A DNA stretch of 64,000 nt, taken from Escherichia coli (GTDB lineage: Bacteria; Pseudomonadota; Gammaproteobacteria; Enterobacterales; Enterobacteriaceae). The translations under genes were made by a program, and so were the position numbers. The notes beneath the pieces are model-generated. The model saw only the letters and a program-made list of their open reading frames with translations, was not told the DNA's origin and did no database searches. The stretch lies in NCBI RefSeq assembly GCF_048403405.1, contig NZ_CP183129.1. One strand, 5' to 3'. This document shows, one piece after another, positions 2,406 to 21,101 of this stretch. Each line of letters begins with the position of its first letter. Position 1 is the stretch's first letter.

Positions 2406-2429
2406 CAAACCCGCTCAGGCGGGTTTTTT
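2406..2429 (+). terminator. rho-independent terminator after cspB
   Basis: aaacccgctcaggcgggtttttt. Confidence 0.6.
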
Positions 2430-2488
2430 ATTATCTGCTTTAAATATATTATTAAAATATAAAAAATACTTGTTACTAATAAAATCAA

Positions 2489-3094: not shown

Positions 3095-3098
3095 TCCA

Positions 3099-3650: not shown

Positions 3651-3858
3651 GCTTATTGGCGGACGCTGCAATTAATTCAGGAAGGTCCGCAAGGTCATCT
3701 GTCAGTGGATATGATGAAAAATCGGCGGCAGTTCTGTTAAGAAGCGCTTTAACTAATTCCTTTTCCTTCTCCGGCAACAAGTTGATTAGAGCTACGACTG
3801 CTTGCCTGAGTGCGATTAAATCAGCAAAAGTTTGTTTAGGTAGATTTGTGTAATCCAT
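3598..3858 (-). CDS. hypothetical acidic 86-aa protein, convergent with and overlapping the 3-prime end of the YdfR-like ORF
   Basis: ATG with AGAGG about 7 nt upstream; predicted helical, acidic; no recognised family. Confidence 0.35.
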   Translation of the reverse strand: MDYTNLPKQTFADLIALRQAVVALINLLPEKEKELVKALLNRTAADFSSYPLTDDLADLPELIAASANKLTEEIYPPQKSSQNSCE

Positions 3859-3971
3859 AGTCGCCTCTGTGTTTATCAGATTGACATCCTCCTCCCGCCA
3901 GTGCCCATCACTGGTGAGGTAAGATTTAACATATCCGGGGATTTGAAGCCGATAAATCCTGATAAATATCC

Positions 3972-4999
<1,028 letters not shown>

Positions 5000-5362
5000 A
5001 TTAATATTAAATCGGATTATTTTTAGCGCTGAATGTGAAATTTAAATAAAAAGGACTCTTCCATGAGTCAAAATCCTTGAAATCTTAAGGGTAAGATAAA
5101 AGGTCATTAGACAGAATGACACGTTTTATTAATAAATAAAGCTATTGTTTCATTCGTGTGTTTTTCTTTACAAAAGTAATCCTTGCTATGGTTGGTTAAT
5201 CATGCGTTAATGGTGTTCTGGTTTGTTACAAAATTATCTGAAGCAGTCATTGTTATAATTTTATTATTTGTACCTCTTGAGATTTCCTTGTTGGTTTTTC
5301 TCTCTGATATTTTTTTTCGGACCATTCTGCCCAAGGGCTAACTTCTTCAAAAGGTAATAATG

Positions 5363-5575
5363 ATGTCTAACAAAATGACTGGTTTAGTGAAATGGTTTAA
5401 CCCTGAAAAAGGTTTTGGTTTCATCACGCCGAAAGATGGTAGCAAAGATGTGTTTGTCCATTTCTCAGCTATTCAGAGCAACGATTTCAAAACGTTAACT
5501 GAGAATCAGGAAGTCGAATTTGGTATTGAGAACGGACCTAAAGGCCCCGCGGCTGTTCATGTTGTGGCACTTTGA
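5363..5575 (+). CDS. cspI: cold-shock protein, CspI-like
   Basis: 70 aa, [43 protein letters not shown]...; long AT-rich leader. Confidence 0.85.
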
Positions 5576-5775
5576 GGTAGATAATATTACAAACCATATT
5601 CACTTTAGATGCCCGTGTTGCCATGGTTCTCAGTATAGAACATCATCTTTTGATGTTTCTGACAGGAATCCTTTCGGGGCAAAATGTATCTTTTGTAAAT
5701 CAATGATGATTACATTTGATAATATTTCACAATACTTAAATGTTAGCCGTCTATCGTTAGATTTAAGAAAGTGAA

Positions 5776-5801
5776 AATGAAGGCTCCTTCGGGAGCTTTT
5801 T
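5776..5801 (+). terminator. rho-independent terminator downstream of cspI
   Basis: gaaggctccttcgggagcttttttt. Confidence 0.55.
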
Positions 5802-5846
5802 TTCTTAGTGTCTAGTCGATGGATACTCACATAATACGGTAACATT

Positions 5847-6077
5847 ATGAAAAAAATAATAGTTTTTTTTAACTCTGAACCAGCAATGGTAGTGCCAGTG
5901 ATGACCGGAGTTAACACCATCATGCGTGAATATCCAAATGGCGAAACAACACACCTCACTGTAATGGCTGCAGGGTTTCCATCTCTGACCGGAGATCATA
6001 AAATCATTTATGTAGCAGCGGATCGACATGTAACTTCAGAAGAAATTCTGGAAGCAGCAATGAGACTCTTGAATTGA
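5847..6077 (+). CDS. hypothetical small protein (76 aa) between cspI and gnsB
   Basis: ORF with upstream purine-rich stretch; occupies the ynfN position of K-12 Qin; identity not confirmed. Confidence 0.45.
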   Translation: MKKIIVFFNSEPAMVVPVMTGVNTIMREYPNGETTHLTVMAAGFPSLTGDHKIIYVAADRHVTSEEILEAAMRLLN

Positions 6078-6249
6078 TTTGATTCTAATGCATTGATAAT
6101 AAATGATAATCATCTTTATCTGTTTGTGTGAAATTTAGACCGTCGTATGTTGATTATTGCGATGTTTCATCTTATCTTTTATACGTTTGCTCCATATAAT
6201 TGACACTACTGTGTACCAGGAAAGTCATAACAGACTAAAAGAGGAAATG

Positions 6250-6423
6250 ATGAACATTGAAGAGTTAAAAACAAAAACAGAAGCAGATATTTCTGAATAT
6301 ATAACAAAAAAAATCATTGAGCTTAAGAAAAAGACCGGGAAAGAAGTTACCAGTATCCAGTTTACTGCACGGGAAAAAATGACTGGTCTTGAAAGCTATG
6401 ATATCAAGATTGATTTAATCTAG
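6250..6423 (+). CDS. gnsB: GnsA/GnsB-family small protein
   Basis: 57 aa, MNIEELKTKTEADISEYITKKIIELKKKTGKEVTSIQFTAREKMTGLESYDIKIDLI; close to recalled GnsB. Confidence 0.8.
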   Translation: MNIEELKTKTEADISEYITKKIIELKKKTGKEVTSIQFTAREKMTGLESYDIKIDLI

Positions 6424-6716
6424 TCTGTTTAGTATTAGCATCAATTTCTCATCAGATGCTATTCAACAATACAAATTACCCATAAACCTCGTTTTTACGG
6501 GGTTTTGTTATATTTAAACATTACCGAATAGGTATAAATCTCGATTGTCGATGGTATTGGTTGTGTGACAATACCTAGTCTTTCCGGTATGCCTGATGAG
6601 AATACAAACGACAGATTATGTAAGGGAAACGCGCTGAATCTTTAACTCTTTCATGCTGAGTGATTTGACGTTATATTTTTAGCCGTAAGTGAAGAGCAAA
6701 CGCATGGAGCGACAAA

Positions 6717-6923
6717 ATGCATAAAGATCAATACACTGATGCCCCCTCCCAGGAGCAGGTTCGTGTAAAAACTATGCTTAATAGCACCATTTCGATGGGT
6801 TACCCGGATGTTGTAATTGCATGTATAGAACATCAAGTGTCTCTGGAAGCATTCAGGGCAATTGAGGCCGCGTTAGTAAAGCACGATAAGAATACGAAGG
6901 ATTATTCCCTGGTGGTTGACTGA
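6717..6923 (+). CDS. hypothetical protein (68 aa)
   Basis: ATG preceded by GGAG; no family recognised. Confidence 0.35.
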
Positions 6924-7286
6924 TCACCATAACTGCTAACCATTCTGACCATTTCACAAGTGACAGAGTCAATATCGTATTCTGTCACTGTCAGGCTAAT
7001 ACAGCAATGCAATTCAACTACAGCAATGCCTCGTATTTAGGTGAATTTACAATATCGTCCAGTTCGGATGCCGGCTGCATTTCTGAAGATAAGGCATTTC
7101 GGTTCTCGTATTTTCCCCTCATGCTCGTCAGTCCTGCGCGTAGTAAGAAACAGGACACTCACACTAATTTGTGTGGGCATGCTGTGATGTCCTTCTGAAT
7201 TATCCCCATGCCATTATGTAAAGCTCTGTTAAAGATGCTCGTCACGGTTGTCAGGCTGTCGGGTCCTCCCAGTGGGGGGCCCTGCC

Positions 7287-7306
7287 ACGGGGCGGGAGCG
7301 TCGCGG
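7287..7306. promoter_or_regulatory. cohesive-end site (cosN-like) for terminase
   Basis: ACGGGGCGGGAGCGTCGCGG closely parallels lambda cosN context ACGGGGCGGCGACCTCGCGG; lies ~185 bp upstream of the terminase small subunit start, as in lambda. Confidence 0.65.
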
Positions 7307-7473
7307 AAAAAGGCTAGTTTTTGCATTTCCATGGCGGCGGCAGCATGTTTGGTAATTTATTGATAATTAAAAGTTATTTCCCTTTTCACCTGTACAATAT
7401 TTTTTTCTTCCTGTCATTAGACCAGTTTGCAATTAATTGAAATATATAAATAAACCTGATTTTCACCTGCCAG

Positions 7474-8013
7474 ATGGAGTTGCTTATGTCAAATGTGAGC
7501 GGGATCGGTGATGCTTATTACTGGAGTGTTTTTAAAATCGCCGAGGCCTTTGGGCTTCACCGGGACACAGTAAAAAAACGGCTCCTCGCGGCCAACACTC
7601 CTGTGGCTGCGACTGTCAGGGGGAACCCCGTTTACGCCCTGCAGCATGTCGGGCCCGCCCTGTTTAGTGTGAAGCATGAGGCAGCAGACTCTGTTCATGA
7701 TCCATCCCGTATGGAGCCGAAAGAGAGAAAGGACTGGTACCAGTCTGAAAATGAAAGGATCAAGCTGGAAAAGGAGCAGCGAAAACTCATCCCAGTTGAT
7801 GAAGTAGTCATCGTCTATTCGTCCATGAGAAAGGCTGTCGTCCAGGTTCTGGAGACAATTCCGGATGTTCTTGAACGCGATTGCGCTCTGACTCCTCAGG
7901 CCGTCGGCGTTGTACAGCAGGCCATTGATGACCTGCGATACACTCTTCAGGAAAAATCCTACGAGGCTTGTGCTGCTGAATTAATTCCTGATGAGGAAGG
8001 AGAGAGTCTCTAG
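7474..8013 (+). CDS. terminase small subunit
   Basis: 179 aa; N-terminal helix-turn-helix (SVFKIAEAFGLHRDTVKKRL); immediately upstream of the large subunit and downstream of cos. Confidence 0.7.
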   Translation: MELLMSNVSGIGDAYYWSVFKIAEAFGLHRDTVKKRLLAANTPVAATVRGNPVYALQHVGPALFSVKHEAADSVHDPSRMEPKERKDWYQSENERIKLEKEQRKLIPVDEVVIVYSSMRKAVVQVLETIPDVLERDCALTPQAVGVVQQAIDDLRYTLQEKSYEACAAELIPDEEGESL

Positions 8014-8021
8014 GAGGAATA

Positions 8022-10121
8022 ATGGGTTTTTCATCAGCCCGAAATTTGGGAAGGGACATATCGGCAGGATTTTCCCCACCACGTCGCATGCCGATTTCGG
8101 AGGCTGTTAAAAAATTCATGCGTGTTCCCAAGGGGGCTGGTAACTCGGTGCCATGGGATCCTGAACTGACACCCTACATCATTGAGCCCATGAACTGCCT
8201 GGCATCGCGTGAATACGATGCGGTGATTTTTGTTGGTCCTGCGCGAACAGGGAAGACCATTGGTCTGATCGATGGATGGATTGTCTATACCATCGTTTGC
8301 GATCCTTCGGACATGCTCGTTGTGCAGATGACCGAAGATAAGGCCCGCGAGCATTCTAAAAAGCGCCTCGACAGAACGTTCAGAAGCAGTGCGGCGGTAA
8401 AGAAAAGAATGAGTCCACGTCGTAACGACAATAATGTCCATGATAAGACGTTCAGGGATGGCTCGTTCCTTAAAATTGGTTGGCCCTCGGTCAACATTAT
8501 GTCGTCGTCGGATTACCGGTTTGTCGCCTTAACCGATTACGACCGTTTTCCGGAGAATATCGACAGCGAGGGTGATGGTTTCTCCCTGGCCTCAAAACGT
8601 ACCACCACATTTATGTCCGCCGGGATGACTCTGGTGGAGAGCTCGCCGGGACGTGACATCTGCGACAGCAAATGGCGACGTAAGTCGCCTCATGAAGCGC
8701 CACCGACGACTGGTATTCTTTCCCTTTACAATCGTGGTGACCGCCGCCGCTGGTACTGGCCATGTCCGCACTGCGGTGAATATTTTCAGCCAGCTATGGA
8801 TGCCATGACCGGCTACCGTAATGAACCGGATCCCTTTAAAGCCAGTGAGGCGGCGTATCTACTTTGCCCGCACTGCAGCGGCATTATCACTGCGGAGAAA
8901 AAGCGTGAGCTCAATAGTGCAGGAGTCTGGTTGCGTGAAGGTCAGGTCATTGATCGTAACGGCAACGTTTCCGGTGAACCGCGCCGCTCCCGTATCGCCA
9001 GTTTCTGGATGGAAGGGCCAGCTGCTGCGTATCAGACCTGGGCGCAACTGGTTTACAAATTACTGACTGCAGAACAGGAGTATGAAGCGACAGGAAGCGA
9101 AGAAACACTCAGGGCGGTTATCAACACCGACTGGGGATTGCCTTATCTTCCTCGTGCCAGCATGGAGCAACGAAAAAGTGAACTGCTTGAGCAGCGGGCA
9201 GAGCCAGTTCCTTCCTGCAGTGTGCCGGATGGCGTTAATTTCCTTGTGGCGACAGTGGATGTGCAGGCGGGACGTCATCGCCGTTTTGTGGTTCAGGTAA
9301 CTGGCTATGGCAGTCGTGGCGAACGCTGGATTATTGATCGTTACAATATCACGCAGTCATTGCGCAGTGACTGCGACGGGGAGAGCCAGCGAATTGATCC
9401 GGCCAGCTATCCGGAAGACTGGGATGTCCTGCTGACGGATGTTTTTCATAAAAGCTGGCCGCTGGCCTCCGATCCTTCTCAACAAATGCGACTGATGGCA
9501 ATGGCGGTGGACTCCGGCGGTGAAGACGGGGTCACTGATAATGCCTATAAATTCTGGCGTCGTTGCCGTCGTGATGGCCTTGGTAAACGTATTTACCTGT
9601 TTAAGGGCGACAGCATCCGGCGCGCAAAACTGATCACCCGTACATTCCCTGATAACACCGGACGAACGGGCCGACGGGCGCAGGCCGCAGGTGATGTGCC
9701 GCTCTGGCTTCTTCAGACGGATGCACTGAAAGACCGGGTGAATAACGCGTTATGGCGTGACTCGCCAGGTCCCGGCTATGTGCATTTCCCTGACTGGCTG
9801 GGGAGCTGGTTTTACGACGAACTGACGTATGAAGAGCGGAGCAGTGACGGGAAATGGAGTAAGCCGGGTCGCGGTGCCAACGAAGCTTTTGACCTGATGG
9901 TGTATGCCGAGGCTCTGGTCATTCTGCATGGATACGAAAAGATCCGCTGGCCGGATGCACCGGAGTGGGCGAGCCGGGAAACCTGGCTGGAGTGTGTCCC
10001 GGACAGTACCGAACCGTCACCCTCACCGGAACCGGTATCCACGCCTGTTAAAAAACAAAAACGGAAGAAAACAGTAACTGACGATGTTAACCCCTGGCTG
10101 ACTTCCGGAGGATGGTTATGA
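8022..10121 (+). CDS. terminase large subunit (lambda GpA family)
   Basis: 699 aa; Walker A motif GPARTGKT; C-terminal nuclease-like region; gene order. Confidence 0.9.
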   Translation: MGFSSARNLGRDISAGFSPPRRMPISEAVKKFMRVPKGAGNSVPWDPELTPYIIEPMNCLASREYDAVIFVGPARTGKTIGLIDGWIVYTIVCDPSDMLVVQMTEDKAREHSKKRLDRTFRSSAAVKKRMSPRRNDNNVHDKTFRDGSFLKIGWPSVNIMSSSDYRFVALTDYDRFPENIDSEGDGFSLASKRTTTFMSAGMTLVESSPGRDICDSKWRRKSPHEAPPTTGILSLYNRGDRRRWYWPCPHCGEYFQPAMDAMTGYRNEPDPFKASEAAYLLCPHCSGIITAEKKRELNSAGVWLREGQVIDRNGNVSGEPRRSRIASFWMEGPAAAYQTWAQLVYKLLTAEQEYEATGSEETLRAVINTDWGLPYLPRASMEQRKSELLEQRAEPVPSCSVPDGVNFLVATVDVQAGRHRRFVVQVTGYGSRGERWIIDRYNITQSLRSDCDGESQRIDPASYPEDWDVLLTDVFHKSWPLASDPSQQMRLMAMAVDSGGEDGVTDNAYKFWRRCRRDGLGKRIYLFKGDSIRRAKLITRTFPDNTGRTGRRAQAAGDVPLWLLQTDALKDRVNNALWRDSPGPGYVHFPDWLGSWFYDELTYEERSSDGKWSKPGRGANEAFDLMVYAEALVILHGYEKIRWPDAPEWASRETWLECVPDSTEPSPSPEPVSTPVKKQKRKKTVTDDVNPWLTSGGWL

Positions 10122-10330
10122 ACCAGAATGATATCGAAGCCATGATTCAGCGTTATACGGAAGCTGAAATGGCGGTGCTGGACGGAAAATCCGTCACCTT
10201 TAATGGTCAGCAGATGACCATGGAAAACTTATCTGAGATCCGGCAGGGACGGCAGGAGTGGGAGCGCCGCCTTGCGGCTCTGATTACACGACGACGGGGG
10301 CATCCCGGGTACCGGCTGGCGAGGTTCTGA
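10112..10330 (+). CDS. head-tail joining protein (gpW-like)
   Basis: 72 aa; C-terminal RRRGHPGYRL resembles lambda gpW tail; position between terminase and portal. Confidence 0.7.
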   Translation: MVMNQNDIEAMIQRYTEAEMAVLDGKSVTFNGQQMTMENLSEIRQGRQEWERRLAALITRRRGHPGYRLARF

Positions 10331-11838
10331 TGGCAATTCTTGATGATGTGATTGGCGTTTTTTCACCAGGATGGAAAGCGGCAAGGCTGCGTTCCCGGGC
10401 GGTGATCCAGGCTTATGAGGCCGTAAAAACGACGCGGACACACAAAGCCCGGCGGGAAAACCGAACTGCCGACCAGTTAAGCCTCTACGGGGCCGTGTCG
10501 TTACGTGAGCAGGCCCGTTACCTTGATAACAACCACGATCTGGTCATTGGTGTATTTGACAAGCTGGAAGAACGGGTGGTGGGGAAAAACGGGATTATTG
10601 TCGAGCCACATCCGGTATTACGCAATGGGGCCATTGCCCGTGATCTGGCAGCGGAGATACGCACCCGATGGAGTGAATGGTCTGTCAGTCCGGAAGTTAC
10701 CGGGCAGTTTACCCGTCCGATGCTGGAACGTCTGATGCTGCGTACCTGGCTGCGCGATGGTGAGGTGTTTGCCCAGATGGTTTCCGGGCGCATAAACAGC
10801 CTGACGCCTTCTGCCGGTGTTCATTTCTGGCTGGAGGCACTCGAGCCAGACTTTATTCCCATGACCAGTGATGAGAGCAACAGGCTGAATCAGGGCGTGT
10901 TTGTTGATGACTGGGGGCGTCCCGAAAAATATCTGGTGTATAAAAGTCGTCCTGTATCCGGACGGCAGATGGAAACCAAAGAAGTGGATGCAGAGCGAAT
11001 GCTGCATCTTAAATTTGTTCGCCGTCTGCACCAGATGCGCGGGACGTCTTTATTGTCCGGTGTGCTGATCCGCCTCAGTGCCCTGAAAGAATATGAAGAT
11101 TCTGAGCTGACTGCAGCAAGGATCGCTGCTGCTCTGGGGATGTACATCCGCAAAGGCGACGGACAGAGCTATGAAACGGATGGTAATGACAGCAAGGAGA
11201 ATGAACGCGAGCTTACCATTCAGCCAGGCATTATTTACGACGATCTGAAACCCGGCGAAGAAATCGGAATGGTGAAGTCGGATCGCCCCAATCCTAACCT
11301 TGAAACTTTTCGTAATGGTCAGTTGCGTGCCGTGGCGGCGGGCAGTCGTCTGAGTTTTTCCAGTACAGCGCGCAACTATAACGGCACTTACAGCGCCCAG
11401 CGTCAGGAGCTGGTTGAATCCACTGATGGCTACCTGATCCTGCAGGACTGGTTTATTGGTGCCGTCACCCGCCCGATGTATCGTGCCTGGCTGAAACAGG
11501 CTGTGGCATCCGGTGTTATCAGGCTACCCCGCGATCTTGACCGTTCTTCACTGTATACCGCGGTGTATTCCGGACCGGTGATGCCGTGGATTGACCCTGT
11601 TAAGGAGGCTGAGGCCTGGAAAATTCAGATTCGTGGTGGAGCGGCGACAGAATCAGACTGGGTACGTGCAGGTGGTCGTAATCCGGATGATGTCAAACGT
11701 CGGCGCAAGGCAGAAATTGATGAAAACCGCAAGCTGGATCTGGTATTTGATACCGATCCGGCCAGTGATAAAGGAGGCAGCAGTGCCGCAACGAAACGAC
11801 AGGAGCCGCAGCACACCGACGACCAGTCCGAAGAATAA
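10330..11838 (+). CDS. portal protein (lambda gpB-like)
   Basis: 502 aa from MAILDD...; size and position; start chosen at first Met after the gpW-like stop. Confidence 0.85.
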   Translation: MAILDDVIGVFSPGWKAARLRSRAVIQAYEAVKTTRTHKARRENRTADQLSLYGAVSLREQARYLDNNHDLVIGVFDKLEERVVGKNGIIVEPHPVLRNGAIARDLAAEIRTRWSEWSVSPEVTGQFTRPMLERLMLRTWLRDGEVFAQMVSGRINSLTPSAGVHFWLEALEPDFIPMTSDESNRLNQGVFVDDWGRPEKYLVYKSRPVSGRQMETKEVDAERMLHLKFVRRLHQMRGTSLLSGVLIRLSALKEYEDSELTAARIAAALGMYIRKGDGQSYETDGNDSKENERELTIQPGIIYDDLKPGEEIGMVKSDRPNPNLETFRNGQLRAVAAGSRLSFSSTARNYNGTYSAQRQELVESTDGYLILQDWFIGAVTRPMYRAWLKQAVASGVIRLPRDLDRSSLYTAVYSGPVMPWIDPVKEAEAWKIQIRGGAATESDWVRAGGRNPDDVKRRRKAEIDENRKLDLVFDTDPASDKGGSSAATKRQEPQHTDDQSEE

Positions 11839-13810
11839 TTCCTGGTTCAGGATGCAGGCTGGTCACCAGAGTGACGCGGATATTTATATTTATGACGAGA
11901 TTGGTTTCTGGGGTGTTACAGCGAAGCAGTTTATCAGTGATCTGAATGCACTGGGCGATATCACCCACATTAATCTCCATATCAATTCACCGGGTGGCGA
12001 TGTCTTTGAAGGCATCGCCATTTTTAATGCGCTGAAAACACATGGTGCGTCCATTACCGTTTATGTCGACGGTGTGGCGGCGTCAATGGCGTCGGTCATT
12101 GCGATGGTGGGAAACCCGGTCATTATGCCGGAAAACACCTTCATGATGATTCATAAACCATTTGGCTTTACGGGCGGTGATGCGGAGGACATGCGCACCT
12201 ATGCCGACCTGCTCGATAAGGTTGAGGCGGTTCTGTTACCCGCTTATGCACAGAAAACCGGGAAAACCACCGATGAAATTGCTGCCATGCTGGCGGATGA
12301 GACCTGGATGTCCGGTGCCGAATGTCTGGCACATGGATTTGCTGATCAGGTGACGCCAGCCGTTAAGGCAATGGCATGTATTCAGTCAAAACGTACAGAG
12401 GAATTTAAAAAGATGCCGGAATCCATTCGAAACATGATTACTCCGCCACGCAACAGTGCTCCACGCGTACAGGATGATGAACCTGCAGCCTCCCGGACGC
12501 CAGTGCAGGCAGCAGCACCCGTGGTGGATGAAAACAGTATCCGTGCGCAGGTACTGGCAGAGCAAAAAGCGCGTGTAAACGGTATTAATGATCTGTTTGC
12601 CATGTTTGGCGGGCGTTATCAGACGCTGCAGGCTCAGTGTCTTGCCGATCCTGAGTGTTCGCTGGAGCAGGCCCGCGAAAAGCTGTTGAACGAGATGGGG
12701 CGCGAGTCCACGCCATCCAATAAAAATACACCGGCTCATATTTATGCTGGTAACGGTAATTTTGTGGGGGACGGGATCCGCCAGGCGCTGATGGCGCGTG
12801 CCGGATTTGAAAAAACCGAACGTGATAATGTCTACAACGGGATGACCCTGCGTGAATATGCCCGTATGTCACTGACTGAACGGGGTATTGGGGTTTCCGG
12901 TTATAACCCGATGCAGATGGTCGGTGCGGCGTTCACCCACAGTACGTCTGACTTCGGTAATATTCTGCTGGATGTTGCGAACAAAGCCATTCTGCAGGGC
13001 TGGGAAGATGCTCCTGAAACCTATGAACAATGGACGCGGAAAGGTCAGTTGTCTGATTTTAAAATTGCCCATCGTGTGGGTATGGGGGGCTTCAGTGCTC
13101 TGCGTCAGGTGCGTGAAGGGGCGGAATATAAATACGTCACCACCGGAGATAAACAGGCCACTATTGCACTGGCGACCTATGGCGAGCTGTTCAGTATCAC
13201 CCGTCAGGCCATTATCAATGATGATCTGAATATGCTGACCGATGTCCCGATGAAACTGGGCCGTGCGGCGAAATCCACTATTGCCGATCTGGTTTATGCC
13301 ATTCTGACGTCTAACCCGAAAATCTCCACAGATAATGTAAGTCTGTTCGATAAAGCGAAACATGCAAACGTACTGGAGAGCGCTGCAATGGACGTGGCAT
13401 CGCTGGATAAAGCCCGCCAGTTGATGCGCGTTCAGAAAGAGGGGGAGCGTCATCTGAATATTCGTCCTGCGTTCGTACTGGTACCGACGGCGATGGAGTC
13501 TGTTGCTAACCAGGTCATTCGCTCCTCAAGTGTCAAGGGGGCTGACATTAACGCCGGTATTATTAACCCGGTGAAAGATTTTGCGACCGTTATTGCAGAG
13601 CCTCGTCTTGATGATAACAGCCAGACCACCTTCTACCTGGCTGCGTCAAAAGGCTCCGATACGATTGAAGTGGCTTATCTCAACGGTGTGGATACGCCAT
13701 ATATTGATCAGATGGAGGGCTTCAGTGTGGATGGCGTGACAACGAAAGTGCGTATTGACGCCGGTGTCGCGCCAGTTGATCACCGCGGTCTGGTGAAATG
13801 TACGGCGTAA
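11783..13810 (+). CDS. prohead protease (ClpP/S49-like) fused in one frame to the major capsid protein
   Basis: GTG start after AAGGAGG; N-terminal ClpP-like region (IYIYDEIGFWG...HINSPGGDVFEG...); C-terminal ~330 aa capsid-like; no separate capsid gene downstream. Confidence 0.8.
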   Translation: MPQRNDRSRSTPTTSPKNNSWFRMQAGHQSDADIYIYDEIGFWGVTAKQFISDLNALGDITHINLHINSPGGDVFEGIAIFNALKTHGASITVYVDGVAASMASVIAMVGNPVIMPENTFMMIHKPFGFTGGDAEDMRTYADLLDKVEAVLLPAYAQKTGKTTDEIAAMLADETWMSGAECLAHGFADQVTPAVKAMACIQSKRTEEFKKMPESIRNMITPPRNSAPRVQDDEPAASRTPVQAAAPVVDENSIRAQVLAEQKARVNGINDLFAMFGGRYQTLQAQCLADPECSLEQAREKLLNEMGRESTPSNKNTPAHIYAGNGNFVGDGIRQALMARAGFEKTERDNVYNGMTLREYARMSLTERGIGVSGYNPMQMVGAAFTHSTSDFGNILLDVANKAILQGWEDAPETYEQWTRKGQLSDFKIAHRVGMGGFSALRQVREGAEYKYVTTGDKQATIALATYGELFSITRQAIINDDLNMLTDVPMKLGRAAKSTIADLVYAILTSNPKISTDNVSLFDKAKHANVLESAAMDVASLDKARQLMRVQKEGERHLNIRPAFVLVPTAMESVANQVIRSSSVKGADINAGIINPVKDFATVIAEPRLDDNSQTTFYLAASKGSDTIEVAYLNGVDTPYIDQMEGFSVDGVTTKVRIDAGVAPVDHRGLVKCTA

Positions 13811-13896
13811 ACGTCGCAGACAACAACTCTGATGGCCCGTAAGGGCTTTTTTTGTACCTGAAATCAGCCCCTGAACGGGGCTGTGCGGAGACAGTT

Positions 13897-14220
13897 ATGG
13901 CAAAGAATTTTGTAGAAGAAGGAAAAACGGTGGCGATTGTTGCCAGTGCAGCCATCAGCAGCGGAGAGCTGGTGCAGGTGGGTGATGTTTTTGCGGTGGC
14001 GCTGACCGATATTCCACAGGGTGAAACAGGCGACGGCATGACCGAAGGTGTGTTTATGCTGCCTAAGCTGAAAACGGATGACATGAAAACGGGTAAGAAG
14101 GTTTATCTGAAGTCCGGAAAAGTTCAGCTGACTAACAGCGGCTCTGATCCGCTGGTCGGGGTTGTCTGGGCAGATGCCGGAACCAGTGCAGAAGAAGTGC
14201 CGGTAAAACTCAATGTCTGA
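13897..14220 (+). CDS. small head-associated protein (possible decoration/completion protein)
   Basis: 107 aa from MAKNFVEEGK...; position right after the capsid gene. Confidence 0.5.
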   Translation: MAKNFVEEGKTVAIVASAAISSGELVQVGDVFAVALTDIPQGETGDGMTEGVFMLPKLKTDDMKTGKKVYLKSGKVQLTNSGSDPLVGVVWADAGTSAEEVPVKLNV

Positions 14221-14488
14221 TCCCTTTTCCCGGCTGGCAGCGCGTATGGATGCGATCACGGTCAGAAAGATGGGAAAGACAGCCTCGATTAATGATGTCG
14301 ATATGACTGTGATCCCGGGAGAAACACTGGCAGAGCTGAATGCTCTGTCCGGACCTGCGGTCTCTCTGGTGGTGTTTTCTTCGGGATACCGCCCACGGCG
14401 CGGGGATCGCGTTGTTTATGACGGACAACAATGGACGGTCACACGGCATGAACGCTTTAACGGTAAGCCAATGATCTTTATTGAGTAA
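14213..14488 (+). CDS. head-tail connector/head completion protein
   Basis: 91 aa; position between head and tail modules. Confidence 0.5.
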   Translation: MSDPFSRLAARMDAITVRKMGKTASINDVDMTVIPGETLAELNALSGPAVSLVVFSSGYRPRRGDRVVYDGQQWTVTRHERFNGKPMIFIE

Positions 14489-14499
14489 AGAGGTGTGGG

Positions 14500-15090
14500 A
14501 TGAAGGGGCTTGAGAATGCCATCCGCAATCTGAACAGCCTTGATACCCGTATGGTGCCACAGGCCAGCGCATGGGCGATAAACCGTGTGGCACAGAAAGC
14601 GGTCTCGGTTGCCACCCGGCAGGTTGCCGGGAATATCGTTGCGGGAGATAACCAGGTGAAAGGGATCCCCCTGAAACTGGTACGTCAGCGTGTCCGGGTG
14701 TTTAAAGCCAGTCCGTCAGGAAAAATGACGGCCAGGATCCGCGTTAACCGGGGCAATCTGCCCGCCATCAAACTGAACACAACACGGCGGCGTGCTGGTG
14801 AAGGACTGAGAGTGGGAAAATACTTTTTCCGGGGGGCATTTGTTCAGCAACTGGCGAATGGCCGCTGGCATGTTCTGAGGCGTCTTCCTGAAGCGCGTTT
14901 TGCAACAGGGCATGACCATCAGGGCAGGCCAAGAAAAAATCGTCTTCCTGTGGAGGTAGTGAAAATCCCGCTGTCCGGACCGCTGACACAGGCATTTGAA
15001 GATGCCCGCGACCACATCATTGCTGCGGAAATGCCGAAACAGCTGGGGTATGCACTGAAACAACAACTGAGGTTATGGCTGACCCGATGA
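14500..15090 (+). CDS. minor tail protein, gpZ-like
   Basis: 196 aa, basic; position corresponds to lambda Z. Confidence 0.55.
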   Translation: MKGLENAIRNLNSLDTRMVPQASAWAINRVAQKAVSVATRQVAGNIVAGDNQVKGIPLKLVRQRVRVFKASPSGKMTARIRVNRGNLPAIKLNTTRRRAGEGLRVGKYFFRGAFVQQLANGRWHVLRRLPEARFATGHDHQGRPRKNRLPVEVVKIPLSGPLTQAFEDARDHIIAAEMPKQLGYALKQQLRLWLTR

Positions 15091-15488
15091 ACCGACATAC
15101 ACAAATCCGCCAGGTCGTACTGGCACGCCTTCGGGAACAGTGTGGAGACAGCGCCACGTTTTTTGACGGGCTTCCGGCATTTATTGATGCGCAGGAACTG
15201 CCTGCCGTGGCGGTGTGGCTGAGTGATGCTCAGTACACCGGAAAAATGACGGATGAAGATGACTGGCAGGCTGTTCTGCATATTGCCGTCTTCATCCGGG
15301 CACAGGCACCGGATTCAGAGCTGGATATGTGGATGGAGAGCACCATTTTTCCGGCCCTGAATGATGTACCGGCACTTTCCGGACTCATCGACACCCTGAA
15401 CCCACTCGGTTTTAACTATCAACGTGATAATGAGATGGCCACCTGGGCGATGGCGGAAATCACGTACCAGATCACGTACACGAATTAA
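15075..15488 (+). CDS. tail terminator, gpU-like
   Basis: 137 aa; position immediately before the major tail gene. Confidence 0.55.
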   Translation: MADPMNRHTQIRQVVLARLREQCGDSATFFDGLPAFIDAQELPAVAVWLSDAQYTGKMTDEDDWQAVLHIAVFIRAQAPDSELDMWMESTIFPALNDVPALSGLIDTLNPLGFNYQRDNEMATWAMAEITYQITYTN

Positions 15489-15498
15489 GGAGGTGGTA

Positions 15499-16242
15499 AT
15501 GACCACACCAAATCCACTGGCAAAGACGAAAGGTGCGGGGACGACGTTCTGGATGTATACCGGCAACGGCGATGCGTTTGCGAACCCTTTGTCGGACACT
15601 GACTGGCTGCGTCTTGCGATGGTGAAGGATCTGCAACCTGGCGAAATGACCGCTGATGCAGAAGATGACACTTATCTCGATGATGAAGATGCAGACTGGA
15701 AAACGACAACCCAGGGGCAGAAATCCGTTGGTGATACTTCGGCGACGCTGGCCTGGCGTCCGGGTGACAGCGGGCAGAAAAAACTGGTTCAGTTGTTCGA
15801 CTCCGGTGAAGTCTGCGCGTTTCGTATCAAATATCCCAACGGCACTGTTGATGTTTTCCGTGGCTGGCTGAGCTCACTGGGTAAAACCATTGCCTCAAAA
15901 GACGTGATGACCCGCACTGTGAAAATCAGCGGTGTGGGGCGTCCGTATCTGGCAGAGGAAGGCACTGAAACCGTGAGCGTTACCGGGCTGACAGTATCAC
16001 CGGCGTCTGCCAGTGTAAAAGTGGGAGCAACCACCACGCTGACCTTTACAGTAAAACCTGACGGAGCCAGTGACAAAGCGATCAGTGTGCATTCGTCAGA
16101 TCCACAGACTGCCACGGTTACCCTGAACGGACTTGTGGCCACGGTAAAAGGCGTGAAGCAGGGCAGTGTCAGCATTGTGGGCATGACCGCTGACGGGAAT
16201 TTTGTGGCTGTGACTGCGGTGACTGTCAGCGCAGCAGGTTAA
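15499..16242 (+). CDS. major tail protein (gpV-like) with C-terminal Ig-like domain
   Basis: 247 aa after AAGGAGG; C-terminal Big_2-like repeat (VTGLTVSPASASVKVGATTTLTFTVKP...). Confidence 0.8.
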   Translation: MTTPNPLAKTKGAGTTFWMYTGNGDAFANPLSDTDWLRLAMVKDLQPGEMTADAEDDTYLDDEDADWKTTTQGQKSVGDTSATLAWRPGDSGQKKLVQLFDSGEVCAFRIKYPNGTVDVFRGWLSSLGKTIASKDVMTRTVKISGVGRPYLAEEGTETVSVTGLTVSPASASVKVGATTTLTFTVKPDGASDKAISVHSSDPQTATVTLNGLVATVKGVKQGSVSIVGMTADGNFVAVTAVTVSAAG

Positions 16243-16299
16243 CAGGACGATACTCATCATTTGCCCCGGTTATGCGGGGCTTTTTTGCAGGTGGAGAAC

Positions 16300-16689
16300 A
16301 TGATGTTTCTGAAACAGGACACGTTTAATTATGAAAAACAGTCCGTGGTGCTCAGTGAGCTGTCCGGGCTGCAGAGAATTGAATATCTGACGTTTGTTCA
16401 GCAGCGAACGGCAAAGTTTGATGCCGTGGAGGGAGAACTGCCGGAGGCTGAACGACAGATTGCTTTTCTGCGGATGGGGATGGATATCAATGCCTGGCTG
16501 GTTTCCCGCTCACTGTGGAATGCGGATCAGTCTAAGGATGTAGAGACGCTTTGCGCATCCGTTATTACAACATGGTCGTATGATGCCCTGGGTGCGGGGG
16601 CGGAGATGGTTCTGTCGCTGAGCGGTATGGGGGCCATTGATAATGCCGTGGATGATGAGCATGAGGCGCTGACGCCGGAAAAGTCCTGA
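16300..16689 (+). CDS. tail assembly chaperone gpG
   Basis: MFLKQDTF...SELSGLQRIEYL... parallels lambda gpG (MFLKTESF...SELSALQRIEHL). Confidence 0.75.
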   Translation: MMFLKQDTFNYEKQSVVLSELSGLQRIEYLTFVQQRTAKFDAVEGELPEAERQIAFLRMGMDINAWLVSRSLWNADQSKDVETLCASVITTWSYDALGAGAEMVLSLSGMGAIDNAVDDEHEALTPEKS

Positions 16690-17027
16690 CGCGGGAAATG
16701 CAGTTTGTCATGCGGCTTGCCCGGGAGTTCCGGCGGGCAGACTGGCGGCGGATGCTGTCGGAAATGTCGGCCACTGAGCTTGGTGAGTGGGGCGATTATT
16801 TCCGGATGCAGAGCTTCAGTGATGTGTGGATGGATGCGCAGTTTGCCTCGCTGAAGGCATTGATCGTGAGAATGGTGTCCGGCAGCAGTGATGCTGCGGT
16901 GGCTGATTTCAGCCTTTTACCGGAAGAGAACGGGATACCGGAGCGAACGGACGAAGAACTGATGCATCTTGGGGAAGGTATTTCCGGAGGTGTGCGTTAT
17001 GGACCAGATAGCCAACCTGGTCATTGA
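16665..17027 (+). CDS. gpT reading frame, expected to be expressed as a G-T fusion by -1 programmed frameshift
   Basis: Frame -1 relative to G is open from 16665 and overlaps the G 3-prime end; conserved lambdoid G/T arrangement. Confidence 0.6.
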   Translation, partial: GADAGKVLTREMQFVMRLAREFRRADWRRMLSEMSATELGEWGDYFRMQSFSDVWMDAQFASLKALIVRMVSGSSDAAVADFSLLPEENGIPERTDEELMHLGEGISGGVRYGPDSQPGH

Positions 17028-20000
17028 TTTGGGGATTGATGCGGCAGAGTTTAAAAATGAAATTCCCCGTATCAAAAACCTTCTGAATGGTGCAGCCAGC
17101 GATGCAGAACGGTCTTCTGCCCGTATGCAGCGTTTTATGGAGCGTCAGACTCAGGCCGCCCGGCAGACAACGCAGGCAGCTTCTTCGGCTGCAACAGCCG
17201 CATCCGTCCATGCGCAGACGGTGGAGAAGAACGCACAGGCTCATGAACGCATGGCCCGCGAGGTGGAGAAAACCCGCCAGCGCATGGAGGCACTGAGCCA
17301 GAAAATGCGCGAGGAACAGGCGCAGGCCATCGCTCTGGCGGAGGCTCAGGATAAAGCGGCTGCTGCGTTTTATCGTCAGATTGACAGTGTGAAACAGGCC
17401 AGTGCGGGGCTGCAGGAATTACAGCGTATTCAGCAGCAGATCCGACAGGCCAGAAACAGTGGCGGGATTGGTCAGCAGGATTATCTGGCGCTGATTTCTG
17501 AGGTTACGGCGAAAACCCGTGTTCTTACGCAGGCTGAGGCAGAGGCTACCCGACAGAAAGTGGCGTTTATCCGTCAGCTTAAAGAGCAGGCAACCCGCCA
17601 GAATCTTTCTTCTTCTGAGTTGCTTCGTGCCAGGGCTGCCCAGCTGGGGGTAAGCAGTGCTGCAGAAGTGTATATCCGCAAAATGGAGCGGGCAGGAAAA
17701 GCCACGCATTCGCTGGGTCTGAAAAGTGCAGCGGCCCGCCAGGAGATAGGCGTTCTGATAGGTGAACTGGCCCGCGGCAATTTAGGGGCGCTGAGGGGAT
17801 CCGGGATAACGCTGGCTAACCGTGCCGGATGGATAGACACACTGATGTCACCGAAAGGCATGATGCTGGGCGGGGTTATTGGCGGTATTACCGCGGCCGT
17901 CTATGGTCTGGGTAAAGCCTGGTATGACGGTCAGAAGGAGGGGGAAGAATTTAACCGCCAGCTGTCGCTGACGGGGCATTATGCCGGAGTCACTGCCGGG
18001 CAACTGTGGACGCTCAGTCGTGCTATTTCCGGGAATGGTATCACGCAACATGCTGCAGCCGGTGCGCTGGCTCAGGTGGTGGGGAGTGGTGCATTTCGTG
18101 GAAACGATATCGGTATGGTGGCGAGAGCTGCCGCACAGATGGAGCGATCGGTTGGCCAGTCGGTCAGCGATACCATAAATCAGTTTAAGCGGCTGAAGGA
18201 TGATCCTGTAAATGCCGCGAAGTCTCTGGACAATGAGCTGCATTTTCTTACTGCCACTCAGCTTGAGCAGATACGCGTCCTTGGAGAGCAGGGGCGGTCC
18301 AGTGATGCGGCACGGATAGCCATGTCTGCACTGGCAGAGGAAACCGGTCGGCGTACTGCGGATATTGATAATAACCTCAATGCGCTGGGCAGTACGCTGC
18401 AAACTTTGTCTGACTGGTGGAAGCAGTTCTGGGATGCGGCCATGAATATTGGTCGTGAAGATTCGCTGGATGCGCAGATTGCCACTTTGCAGGAGAAAGT
18501 GTCGCGGGCGAAAAGACTCCCCTGGACGGCATCATCTTCTCAGGTTGAATACGATCAGCAGCGTCTTAACGATCTTCAGGAGAAAAAACGCCAGAAGGAT
18601 TTGCAGGATGCAAAAGAGCAGGCAGAGCGGAATTATCAGGAGCAACAGAAACGCCGTAATGCTGAAAATGCTGCACTGAACCGGATGAATGAAACGGAAG
18701 CTGCACGACATCAGCGTGAAATTGCGCGTATTAATGCCATGCAGTACGCCGATCAGGCTGTCAGGGATGCGGCGATACAACGTGAAAATGAACGTTACGA
18801 GAAAGCCCTGGCATCCGGTAAGAAAAAAACACGCGAAACCCGTAATGATGAGGCCACCCGGTTATTGCTGCAGTACAGTCAGCAACAGGCACAGGTGGAA
18901 GGACAGATTGCTGCTGCCAGACAGTCAGCAGGCATTGCCACGGAAAGGATGACAGAAGCGCATAAACAGCTCCTGGCTCTGCAGCAGCGCATCAGCGACC
19001 TGGACGGGAAAAAACTGACGGCAGATGAAAAGAGTGTGCTGGCCCGTAAAGATGAACTGATTCAGGCACTGACGCTGCTGGATGTAAAACAGCAGGAGCT
19101 TCAGAAACAGACGGCACTCAACGAGCTGAAGAAAAAAACAATTCAGCTGACCAGTCAACTGGCTGAAGAAGAGCGCGCTCAGCGTCAGCAACATGACCTG
19201 GATATCGCCACGGTGGGTATGGGTGATCAGCAGCGACAGCGATATCAGGTACAACTGAGTCTTCGCCAGAAATACCAGCAACAGCTGGAGCAGTTGAGGC
19301 GGGATAGTGAGCAGAAAGGGACATATAACACGGATGACTACAGAAAGGCCGAGCAGGCGCTGACGGAGAGCCTGAACCGACAACTGAATGAGAATCGCCG
19401 TTACTGGCAACAGCTTGAAGTTGTGCAGGGTAACTGGAAAAACGGAGTCCTGCGTGCATTTCAGGATTTTACCGTGGATGCAGATAATACGGCAGAAACA
19501 GCAGAACAGGTGTTCTCGTCAGCCTTCAGCAACATGGGAAATGGCCTGGCAACTTTTGTCACTACCGGCAAACTCAATTTCAAATCCTTCACCTCTTCTG
19601 TGCTGTCAGATATGGCGAAAATCCTGGCGCAGGCAACCATGATGAAATCGATAAAAGGGATTGGCAGTGTACTGGGATTTGATCTCAGCAGCCTTTCCCT
19701 GAATGCCAATGGGGGGATTTATCAGTCTGCTGATTTGAGTCGTTACAGTGGCACGGTGGTTAACCGTCCGACGTTTTTTGCTTTTGCAAAAGGCGCGGGT
19801 GTGATGGGGGAAGCGGGACCTGAAGCCATTCTGCCATTGCGTCGTGGTGCTGACGGTAAGCTGGGGGTTGTGGCGGATATTGGGGGTTCAGGTATGGCGA
19901 TGTTTTCCCCGCAGTACAACATCGAGATCAATAACGATGGCACGAACGGGCAGATAGGTCCGGCTGCCCTGAAGGCGGTTTATGACCTCGGGAAAAAAGC

Positions 20001-20064
20001 GGCAGCGGACTTTATGCAACAGCAGGCCCGTGATGGTGGTCGGTTAAGTGGAGCATATCGGTAA
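16999..20064 (+). CDS. tail tape-measure protein (gpH-like)
   Basis: about 1020 aa, long coiled-coil Ala/Gln/Arg-rich middle; position. Confidence 0.9.
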   Translation: MDQIANLVIDLGIDAAEFKNEIPRIKNLLNGAASDAERSSARMQRFMERQTQAARQTTQAASSAATAASVHAQTVEKNAQAHERMAREVEKTRQRMEALSQKMREEQAQAIALAEAQDKAAAAFYRQIDSVKQASAGLQELQRIQQQIRQARNSGGIGQQDYLALISEVTAKTRVLTQAEAEATRQKVAFIRQLKEQATRQNLSSSELLRARAAQLGVSSAAEVYIRKMERAGKATHSLGLKSAAARQEIGVLIGELARGNLGALRGSGITLANRAGWIDTLMSPKGMMLGGVIGGITAAVYGLGKAWYDGQKEGEEFNRQLSLTGHYAGVTAGQLWTLSRAISGNGITQHAAAGALAQVVGSGAFRGNDIGMVARAAAQMERSVGQSVSDTINQFKRLKDDPVNAAKSLDNELHFLTATQLEQIRVLGEQGRSSDAARIAMSALAEETGRRTADIDNNLNALGSTLQTLSDWWKQFWDAAMNIGREDSLDAQIATLQEKVSRAKRLPWTASSSQVEYDQQRLNDLQEKKRQKDLQDAKEQAERNYQEQQKRRNAENAALNRMNETEAARHQREIARINAMQYADQAVRDAAIQRENERYEKALASGKKKTRETRNDEATRLLLQYSQQQAQVEGQIAAARQSAGIATERMTEAHKQLLALQQRISDLDGKKLTADEKSVLARKDELIQALTLLDVKQQELQKQTALNELKKKTIQLTSQLAEEERAQRQQHDLDIATVGMGDQQRQRYQVQLSLRQKYQQQLEQLRRDSEQKGTYNTDDYRKAEQALTESLNRQLNENRRYWQQLEVVQGNWKNGVLRAFQDFTVDADNTAETAEQVFSSAFSNMGNGLATFVTTGKLNFKSFTSSVLSDMAKILAQATMMKSIKGIGSVLGFDLSSLSLNANGGIYQSADLSRYSGTVVNRPTFFAFAKGAGVMGEAGPEAILPLRRGADGKLGVVADIGGSGMAMFSPQYNIEINNDGTNGQIGPAALKAVYDLGKKAAADFMQQQARDGGRLSGAYR

Positions 20065-20393
20065 TGGAGACGTTTCACTGGAAAGTGCGCCCGGATATGA
20101 ATGTGGTATCAGAGCCGAAAGTGGTGACAGTGAAGCTGGGCGATGGTTATGAACAGCGTCGTGCGGCGGGACTGAATAACCAGTTGTCGACTTACAGCGT
20201 GACGATACGTGTTCGTAAATGTGAACACCCATCTTTAAAAGCCTTTCTGGAACGGCACGGTGGCGTCCGTGCATTTCAGTGGACGCCACCTTATGACTGG
20301 AAACCGATCAGGGTGGTTTGTCGTAAATGGTCGGCAAGCGTGGGGGCGCTGTGGGTAACCATAACGGCAGATTTTGAACAGGTCGTGGCATAG
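20064..20393 (+). CDS. minor tail protein M
   Basis: 109 aa; size and position as lambda M. Confidence 0.85.
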   Translation: METFHWKVRPDMNVVSEPKVVTVKLGDGYEQRRAAGLNNQLSTYSVTIRVRKCEHPSLKAFLERHGGVRAFQWTPPYDWKPIRVVCRKWSASVGALWVTITADFEQVVA

Positions 20394-20402
20394 GAGGCTC
20401 TG

Positions 20403-21101
20403 ATGCAGGATATTCCACAGGAAACACATCATGAGACGACACGCCTCACTCAGTCAGCCCAGGTGGTGCTCTGGGAAATCGATCTGACAGAGGTCGGTGG
20501 TGAACGTTATTTTTTCTGTAATGAGCAGAACGAAAAAGGTGAGCCGGTTACCTGGCAGGGGCGGCAGTATCAGGCATACCCCATTCAGGGGACGGGATTT
20601 GAACTGAACGGCAAGGGCAGTGCTGCCCGTCCGACACTGACGGTTTCTAACCTGCACGGAATGGTCACCGGGATGGCGGAAGACCTGCAGAGTCTGGTCG
20701 GCGGAACGGTGGTCAGGCGTAAGGTTTACGCCCGTTTTCTGGATGCGGTGAACTTCGTCAACGGAAACAGTGACGCCGATCCGGAGCAGGAGGTGATCAG
20801 CCGCTGGCGCATCGAGCAGTGCAGCGAACTGAGCGCGGTCAGTGCCTCTTTTGTACTGTCCACGCCGACGGAAACGGACGGTGCTGTTTTTCCGGGGCGC
20901 ATCATGCTGGCTAATACCTGCACCTGGACCTATCGCGGTGATGAGTGCGGTTATCACGGTCCGGCGGTCGCGGATGAATATGACCAGCCGACGTCCGATA
21001 TCACGAAGGATAAATGCAGCAAATGCCTGAGTGGTTGTAAGTTTCGCAATAACGTCGGCAACTTTGGCGGCTTCCTTTCCATTAACAAACTTTCGCAGTG
21101 A
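20403..21101 (+). CDS. minor tail protein L
   Basis: 232 aa; C-terminal Cys cluster (CSKCLSGCKFRNN) as in lambda L. Confidence 0.85.
   Translation: MQDIPQETHHETTRLTQSAQVVLWEIDLTEVGGERYFFCNEQNEKGEPVTWQGRQYQAYPIQGTGFELNGKGSAARPTLTVSNLHGMVTGMAEDLQSLVGGTVVRRKVYARFLDAVNFVNGNSDADPEQEVISRWRIEQCSELSAVSASFVLSTPTETDGAVFPGRIMLANTCTWTYRGDECGYHGPAVADEYDQPTSDITKDKCSKCLSGCKFRNNVGNFGGFLSINKLSQ

Follow-up and report, generated by a model that had tools for sequence, protein, structure and literature searches.

Effantin et al. are said to have described, in 2010 (Virology 402:355), a 'tripartite capsid gene' (STM1034.3n) in the Salmonella phage Gifsy-2. The mature capsid protein of this phage is reported to be released by proteolysis. 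The Gifsy-2 capsid has T=7 geometry (PMC8814770) and bears a trimeric cement protein at its threefold axes (PMC8538268), and at least one capsid-prediction pipeline missed the Gifsy-2 capsid protein (PMC8814770). The architecture, published for Gifsy-2, was taken up again in 2021 for the Pseudomonas phage MD8 and MD8-like phages, for which it was proposed that protease, scaffold and capsid protein are one gene (PMC8508860). It is now covered by two curated NCBIfam models, NF045540 ('ClpP-like prohead protease/major capsid protein fusion protein') and NF045541 ('prohead protease/major capsid protein fusion protein', e.g., in Ralstonia phage YO135_4), and by automatic annotation in thousands of genomes, while a literature search by family name found nothing relevant. 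The fused architecture is thus already known and ordinary, and meeting it again is not a new discovery. What we describe here is how one E. coli locus compares with these systems.

The window (the whole 64,000-nucleotide stretch of E. coli DNA that was analysed) contains at 11783-13810 what is, with little doubt, a tripartite capsid gene of the Gifsy-2 type, belonging to a lambdoid prophage and translated as one polyprotein. All features given below are on the plus strand. The initial annotation had read this region as a single ORF of ~675 aa, and inspection agrees: there is one unbroken frame of 675 codons with a 73.5 kDa product, free of internal stops and frameshifts. The ORF itself, the NF045540 match, the identity to Gifsy-2 and a RefSeq CDS at identical coordinates, named as in NF045540, all identify it as a fused gene for prohead protease, scaffold-like segment and major capsid protein. 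Its translation signals (11772-11785), found by reading the sequence and by a start/Shine-Dalgarno scan, are a strong ribosome-binding site, AGGAGG, at 11772-11777 and, 5 bases 3' of it, a GTG start at 11783-11785. This start lies within the 3' end of the portal gene, which the fusion gene overlaps by 56 nt in a different frame. In the same scan an alternative ATG at 11852 had no Shine-Dalgarno motif, and Gifsy-2 has no Met at the matching position, so it is the upstream start that is conserved. A promoter scan within the fusion gene found no sites.

The N-terminal half had been annotated as a protease, which domain searches and the predicted fold narrow to the ClpP type. Residues from about 18 to 222 (11834-12448) form a ClpP-family (S14-like) prohead serine protease domain, backed by Pfam, NCBIfam and the predicted fold. 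When the whole protein was searched against the PDB with phmmer, it matched ClpP only, and the SppA domain model gave 22.3 bits against a cut-off of 155, with ClpP models scoring far higher. The candidate catalytic residues are Ser101 (12083-12085), His124 (12152-12154) and Glu173 (12299-12301). Close relatives show no substitution of Ser101 or His124. As in a Gifsy-2-type gene, the protease domain is of the ClpP family and keeps its catalytic Ser and His. Glu173 occupies the position of the ClpP catalytic Asp, making the third catalytic position Glu, unlike in ClpP.

Between protease and capsid domain lie two linkers and a small helical segment, as seen in an AlphaFold2 model built from a 126-sequence alignment of 50%-identity representatives (mean pLDDT 89.6); a model from 25 close relatives reached a mean pLDDT of only 47 and was discarded. 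Linker 1 (residues 223-249, 12449-12529) is Pro/Ala-rich and disordered (pLDDT <50 at 223-245), and in both sequence and length it varies more than any other part of the alignments. Residues 250-306 (12530-12700) fold with high confidence (pLDDT >90) into three helices at 250-273, 280-288 and 294-306, which are conserved in both fusion families and matched no family in a Pfam search. This segment is a presumed scaffolding or delta-like domain, judging from its position and from the literature on Gifsy-2 and MD8. Linker 2 (residues 307-326, 12701-12760; pLDDT <50 at 317-324), which has a 7-residue insertion in Gifsy-2, is the likely region of the presumed maturation cleavage that would free the capsid protein.

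The remaining residues, 327-675 (12761-13807, 38.0 kDa), are an HK97-fold major capsid protein domain in the same frame as the protease, again backed by Pfam, NCBIfam and the predicted fold; a phmmer search of the C-terminal part alone against the PDB gave only weak matches to the Mu-GpT capsid protein. The initial annotation's capsid-like C-terminal half is thereby made more specific by sequence family and fold. Its further claim, that no separate capsid gene follows, also holds, as the next gene encodes a decoration protein and is followed by head-tail and tail genes. All genes of the head module, from terminase to tail tube, could be typed, and no second capsid, scaffold or protease gene is among them.

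On NF045540 the protein scores 985.7 bits (cut-off 475), with residues 32-674 covering profile positions 2-651 of 652, and it matches PHROG 133 over its full length. The Gifsy-2 gene is likewise above the NF045540 cut-off and shares 69% protein identity over the full length. Both have protease, middle segment and capsid domain in that order in one frame, and the agreement extends to the neighbouring genes. Upstream there is a gpA-type terminase, a small DUF6148 protein and a portal of lambda type, whose gene runs into the start of the fusion gene; downstream, the decoration protein (60% identity) comes first, then a head-tail protein and the tail genes Z/U/V. The differences are at the sequence level only: the N-terminal 17-27 residues and linker 1 are unalignable, and Gifsy-2 has the linker 2 insertion mentioned above. 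MD8 gp5 is 56-58% identical to the present protein and reaches 1,012 bits on NF045540, but it comes from another host genus and its linkers have diverged.

Within E. coli, the gene is present in 1,799 of 5,426 complete genomes (about a third). Its DNA is 98.3-99.8% identical in the phages mEp460, cdtI, Tritos, Ayreon, HannyBb and phi458 and in related prophages. It is the same gene in isolated phages, and the first five of those named, which are viable carriers, have DNA identity >99%. One practical value of the comparison is in naming, since E. coli phage records label the gene inconsistently, as 'protease/scaffold protein', 'head maturation protease', 'Major Capsid Protein' or 'Nu3'. More widely, the scaffold-capsid module occurs in proteins of 600-800 aa in 112 of 148 diverse representatives, and typing of the N-terminal domains by local phmmer found a recognisable protease-like domain in all but two of these (110/112). 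Proteins of the second family, NF045541, share a homologous scaffold-plus-capsid module from Met211-Pro212 onwards. The present protein is nevertheless not a member, since it falls below the cut-off (401.9 bits versus 525), with a match limited to residues 220-672. The N-terminal protease of NF045541 proteins is not ClpP-like and has a weak, sub-threshold match to Peptidase_S78, the HK97 gp4 family (E = 0.013).

The initial annotation also contrasted the fusion with the separate C, Nu3 and E genes of lambda. That contrast is right in substance, but Nu3 is nested in frame within C, which means that protease and scaffold are fused in lambda too (PMC8508860). The two systems would work alike, with a clan-related serine protease in frame with a scaffold (here a presumed one) and a small cement protein that stabilises the expanded head; the terminase, portal and tail genes are of lambda type. 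However, lambda gpC is an S49/SppA-type protease rather than S14/ClpP-type, the lambda capsid protein E has its own gene whereas the capsid domain here is continuous with the protease frame, and the decoration protein belongs to Phage_cement_2, not to the gpD family of lambda. HK97 offers a different parallel: in gp5, a scaffold function sits at the N-terminus of the HK97-fold capsid protein and is removed by the prohead protease. Here the helical segment 250-306 and its linker directly precede the HK97-fold domain, a likeness of working and not of membership. In HK97 the protease belongs to the S78 family and has a gene to itself, unlike the fused ClpP-type protease here, and the HK97 head is stabilised by covalent cross-links without a cement protein, for which there is a gene at this locus.

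Self-cleavage, a scaffold role and the capsid geometry are what we infer from homology and the literature, and they suggest the following assembly pathway. The polyprotein begins with a ClpP-like serine protease, which a flexible linker joins to a small, scaffold-like helical domain; another linker then leads to the HK97-fold capsid domain. The capsid domains would build the procapsid shell on the portal with the N-terminal parts facing inwards, where these would act as a scaffold from within, in the manner of the HK97 delta domain, and each subunit would carry a protease in with it. After the shell has closed, the protease would cut off and digest some 310-330 N-terminal residues, so that a capsid protein of about 38 kDa remains. 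Expansion of the shell would follow as DNA is packaged, and the protein encoded by the next gene would bind as a cement protein.

Three other accounts of the locus bear on how the frame is read. The fusion could be an artefact, i.e., protease and capsid genes joined by a sequencing or assembly frameshift or by decay in a dead prophage. Such a reading might draw on the location at the Qin locus, which in E. coli K-12 is occupied by a cryptic prophage remnant, and on single-member database entries, some of which do contain spurious joins of portal and fusion protein (1,159 aa) or spurious splits (L089). However, the identical frame is found in the 1,799 complete E. coli genomes, in isolated infectious phages and in phages of Salmonella, Pseudomonas and Ralstonia. 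Of the 79 IMG/VR loci that allowed the frame to be followed, 78 have it, and a curated family (NF045540) exists for the fusion. Its conservation rules the artefact out for practical purposes. Alternatively, the long frame could be an overlap of two genes, with the capsid protein made separately from an internal start just 5' of the capsid domain. In-frame ATGs do occur at residues 305, 337, 354, 362, 377 and 379, and Met354 is invariant among close relatives, but none of the six has an upstream Shine-Dalgarno match. When the start of the capsid domain was inspected for an internal start, as a check on the initial annotation, no in-frame start with such a motif was seen nearby, and the capsid domain's lack of a preceding RBS makes a separately translated capsid product unlikely. 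Moreover, most of the capsid-region ATGs fall within capsid-domain helices that the AlphaFold2 model predicts with confidence, and the strongest dip in synonymous variation lies elsewhere in the gene. We therefore consider this overlap of two genes very improbable.

At Met211, near the end of the protease domain, a candidate internal initiation site (12398-12415) consists of GAGGA at 12398-12402, a 10-nt spacer and an in-frame ATG at 12413-12415. The remaining account holds that there are two primary products: a minor full-length one that delivers the protease, and a protease-free one of 465 residues (50.7 kDa) from Met211 that forms the bulk of the shell. A 1:1 ratio of protease to capsid subunits is unusual, which leaves room for such a second product. 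Its counterpart in lambda would be Nu3, nested in C, and in make-up it would be similar to HK97 gp5, which combines a delta domain with the capsid protein. Among close relatives (76 distinct gene sequences, 58-100% identity) Met211 is invariant, and it sits at the module junction, where a Ralstonia NF045541-type protein likewise has Met-Pro at the point where homology begins, with AGGA 7 nt upstream of the Met. A Shine-Dalgarno-like purine run ~9-10 nt upstream is kept while the encoded residues change (Glu-Glu, Glu-Asp, Gln-Glu, Lys-Asp, Arg-Glu, Leu-Glu), and Glu206 is the sole invariant codon among 22 conserved Glu columns (GAG in 75/75, versus 38% GAG overall). Among 9-codon stretches of the gene, synonymous variation is lowest at residues 198-208, and gene callers pick the Met211 ATG on 5'-truncated contigs. 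Set against this, the dip is marginal (permutation p = 0.08, from phylogenetically related sequences), the 10-nt spacing is above the optimum, and only 7% of diverse family representatives have Met at column 211, where Ala, Val or Ile is often seen. The Met thus varies while Pro212 and Phe/Tyr208 are kept, which indicates a motif at the protein level rather than a start codon. A search for genuine stand-alone scaffold-capsid genes that begin at Met211 found none: the apparent cases P0136 and P0150 are cut off by contig ends, and P0130, from a draft genome, is a copy with a frameshift. RNA structure around Met211 did not exceed that of shuffled controls (z = 0.15). On balance we think two primary products unlikely; the sequence features point weakly to a protease-free scaffold-capsid product that could be made from Met211 in the present lineage. 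A broader version is similarly doubtful, and we offer it tentatively. In the enterobacterial/Pseudomonas/Ralstonia branch, the frame might be read from two starts (full-length, and Met211 behind the conserved GAGGA), and this would fix how many protease subunits there are per shell subunit, as C and Nu3 do in lambda. In that case the Met-Pro junction might preserve the start codon of an ancestral HK97-gp5-like gene to which two unrelated protease genes were joined independently. How a 1:1 fusion sets the protease stoichiometry is the question that the locus raises, and it is a modest and testable one. The single polyprotein remains our preferred reading, and none of the findings contradicts it.

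The fusion gene is embedded in a head module of the prophage, which is located at the Qin locus, the site of the cryptic prophage remnant in E. coli K-12. A close relative carries an IS element, its fibre genes are truncated and its tape-measure gene is frameshifted. The present prophage may itself be defective, so expression of the fusion gene in the present strain is not assured. Directly upstream is the lambda-family portal protein gene (10330-11838; Pfam Phage_portal_2, E = 9.5e-82; also in RefSeq). Downstream, the head decoration (cement) protein gene (13897-14220, 107 aa) matches Phage_cement_2 (E = 1.5e-20) and PHROG 122, 'head decoration' (E = 4.6e-47), and it is this gene that corresponds in position to the Gifsy-2 decoration gene. 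Terminator-like sites, as found by a consensus scan, were no more numerous than in shuffled controls; one of them, seen in that scan only, is a hairpin GGCCCGTAAGGGCT followed by a T run (13834-13857), which sits in the 86-nt gap 5' of the decoration gene.

The plus strand of the window carries the head-and-tail module of a lambdoid prophage, in which one gene (the fusion gene) begins with a GTG at 11783 and ends with the stop codon at 13808-13810. Its 675 codons contain no internal stop, which bears out the single ORF of about 675 aa reported in the initial annotation. A ribosome-binding site (AGGAGG, 11772-11777, plus strand) ends 5 bases before the GTG, and the gene begins inside the portal gene (10330-11838), whose final 56 bases it overlaps in a different frame. 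A mechanical ORF call reaches farther upstream, to a TTG at 11591; genomes with 100% identity to window positions 8000-16300 have the RefSeq CDS at precisely 11783-13810. The alternative start at ATG 11852 has no Shine-Dalgarno motif in a start scan, and the Salmonella phage Gifsy-2 has no aligned Met there, so the upstream start is the conserved solution. The precise start is of little consequence, because residues 1-17 are variable among relatives and predicted to be disordered. Public databases also contain several single-member entries of 1,159 aa that join portal, ClpP and capsid; single-base indels or assembly errors in the 11783-11838 overlap are the simplest explanation.

In Pfam, residues 31-191 match CLP_protease (E = 2.8e-36) and residues 375-672 match Phage_capsid_4 (E = 1.1e-54), with a partial match to Mu-like gpT, so the C-terminal domain is capsid-like, as initially proposed. 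The NCBIfam family NF045540 ('ClpP-like prohead protease/major capsid protein fusion protein') matches over its full length (profile positions 2-651 of 652) at 985.7 bits, the curated cut-off being 475 bits. NF045542 ('head maturation protease, ClpP-related') also matches, as does PHROG 133, end to end. The protease had been called ClpP/S49-like, and only the first part of that label holds: the S49/SppA model reaches just 22 bits, its cut-off being 155, so the domain is ClpP-like (S14), whereas lambda gpC has an S49-like protease. Aligned to solved ClpP structures, Ser101 (AASM motif) and His124 (MIH motif) occupy catalytic positions and Glu173 stands where ClpP has its catalytic Asp; none of the three varies among close relatives.

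AlphaFold2 gave a poor model with 25 close relatives (pLDDT 47), but with 126 sequences, some of them representatives of 50%-identity clusters, mean pLDDT was 89.6 and the domain layout was distinct. After the disordered residues 1-17, the prediction has a ClpP fold (18-222), a Pro/Ala-rich disordered linker (223-245), three confident helices (250-306), a second linker (about 307-326, with low confidence at 317-324) and a large alpha/beta domain (327-675) with a long spine helix (483-510).

We typed the neighbouring genes. Upstream, in order, are genes for a DUF1441 protein, a gpA-type large terminase (8022-10121), a DUF6148 protein and the overlapping lambda-type portal. The next gene downstream encodes a head decoration protein (13897-14220; Phage_cement_2, PHROG 122) and is followed by a Gifsy-2/Phage_attach head-tail gene, homologues of Z, U and the tail-tube gene, and the remaining lambda-like tail. 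None of these typed neighbours is a separate gene for a protease, scaffold or capsid protein, in agreement with the earlier statement that no capsid gene follows. The 86-nt gap between the fusion and decoration genes holds a GC-rich hairpin, GGCCCGTAAGGGCT, with a T run (13834-13857); this consensus match could mark a terminator or attenuator, or could stabilise the mRNA.

That the fusion is an artefact is ruled out by its spread across genomes, isolated phages, tblastn records and IMG/VR loci. The 8.3-kb head module occurs at a coverage of at least 80% in 1,799 of 5,426 complete E. coli genomes, with the fusion name annotated every time, and the exact protein heads a 357-member cluster bearing that name. 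Isolated phages (mEp460, cdtI, Tritos, Ayreon, HannyBb, phi458 and others) carry the gene with DNA identities of 98.3-99.8%. A tblastn search found 80 phage records at a minimum of 80% coverage; one of them is Pseudomonas phage MD8, where the annotation reads "protease and major capsid protein". When 80 IMG/VR loci were taken from more than 555 relatives, the ORF was traceable in 79, and protease and capsid motifs share one frame in 78 of these. One IMG/VR locus (L014:2558-4729, UViG_2703718852_000003) has a longer variant (724 aa), 99% identical at residues 1-539 and then divergent, a pattern suggestive of a recombination junction within the capsid domain. In a further homologue (L089:2357-4332, GCA_000755365.1), a frameshift directly after the GFAD motif leaves a ClpP ORF of 201 aa and a scaffold-capsid ORF of 443 aa, reflecting either a pseudogene or an error in the draft assembly; the surrounding prophage appears rearranged.

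Residues 211-675, searched against 1.84 billion cluster representatives, gave 10,642 matches at E ≤ 0.001 and 8,033 at ≤ 1e-10. Among the matches listed and not retrieved before, 112 of 148 representatives are 600-800 residues long; local phmmer typing of their N-termini gave 81 ClpP-like, 29 like that of the Ralstonia phage YO135_4 protein and 2 neither. The YO135_4 protein belongs to NF045541, a second fusion family (744 bits), and its N-terminus weakly matches Peptidase_S78 (HK97 gp4 family), below threshold. Two different proteases are thus fused to one scaffold-capsid module.

The initial annotation proposed a check for an internal start that would give a separate capsid protein. In-frame ATG codons do occur around residues 305-379, but none has a Shine-Dalgarno match in the start scan, making a separately translated capsid protein unlikely. 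Worth noting apart from these is Met211 (ATG 12413, plus strand), just past the protease domain, with GAGGA 10 bases upstream. Both are invariant across 76 distinct sequences, and the Shine-Dalgarno-like run persists between lineages while the residues it encodes change (Glu-Glu, Glu-Asp, Gln-Glu, Lys-Asp, Arg-Glu, Leu-Glu). Glu206 alone among 22 conserved Glu columns has an invariant codon (GAG, 75/75), the 9-codon stretch with the least synonymous variation in the gene is at residues 198-208, and the Ralstonia protein likewise has Met-Pro at this junction, AGGA lying 7 bases upstream. However, the synonymous dip is marginal (permutation p = 0.08), the spacing is long, and Met occurs at position 211 in only 7% of diverse representatives although Pro212 and Phe/Tyr208 are retained, a pattern that suggests a protein-level motif. 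We consider a functional start at Met211 in this lineage rather doubtful, and favour the single polyprotein. Apparent stand-alone genes starting at Met211 turned out to be cut off at contig ends or, in a draft genome, to be a frameshifted copy. The gene's second-lowest synonymous-site variation among 76 homologues lies in the protease domain at residues 69-84 (11987-12034, SPGGDVFEGIAIFNAL), where no overlapping element was recognised.

The initial observation is thus confirmed and its interpretation supported, and the gene is unremarkable: it belongs to a family already published and curated. Gifsy-2 STM1034.3n is 69% identical over the full length, and the Gifsy-2 gene at the decoration position encodes a protein 60% identical to that of the window. 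STM1034.3n is the gene treated by Effantin et al., reportedly with an N-terminal ClpP-like protease, a C-terminal capsid protein and, between them, some 200 residues with a possible scaffolding role. Papers citing that work describe a trimeric Gifsy-2 protein at every threefold axis (PMC8538268) and a T=7 capsid (PMC8814770), and an identical three-in-one arrangement is argued for in MD8-like Pseudomonas phages (PMC8508860).

To the observed architecture, intact frame, catalytic residues, family membership, adjacent cement gene and conservation, homology to Gifsy-2 and established knowledge of HK97 and lambda heads add a probable assembly route. The polyprotein would assemble on the portal with its N-terminal parts within the shell, and the helical segment, perhaps with the protease domain, would serve as scaffold. 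The protease would then cut away roughly the first 310-330 residues, probably in the second linker, and digest them. DNA packaging would expand the shell, to which the decoration protein would bind as cement.

The prophage lies at the E. coli Qin locus. On one side are cspI and the lysis genes essQ/rrrQ/rzpQ, and on the other pinQ, ydfK and a truncated ydfJ; these names follow homologues in an annotated, closely related genome. The sharp G+C step near 8000, from 0.42-0.45 (1-8000, lysis/cold-shock genes) to 0.52-0.58 (8000-28000, head-tail module), fits a mosaic prophage there. Window bases 1-2,850 have no match in the closest annotated genome. The related genome (NZ_CM148325, 99.4% identical) shows signs of decay: it has an IS element, its fibre genes are truncated and its tape-measure gene is frameshifted. 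Its IS200/IS605 transposase insertion (about 700 bp, between lom-like and side tail fibre genes) is absent from the window (site about 26565-26573), and the tape-measure ORF (16969-20064) is intact here, at 1,031 aa from a TTG. Conversely, about 6.2 kb between the eamA and marB regions (44385-50657) is missing from NZ_CM148325; it encodes a GntR/UTRA regulator, PTS EIIC and IIA, a LamB-type porin and a family-1 glycoside hydrolase, and has the appearance of an island for beta-glucoside or cellobiose-type utilisation.
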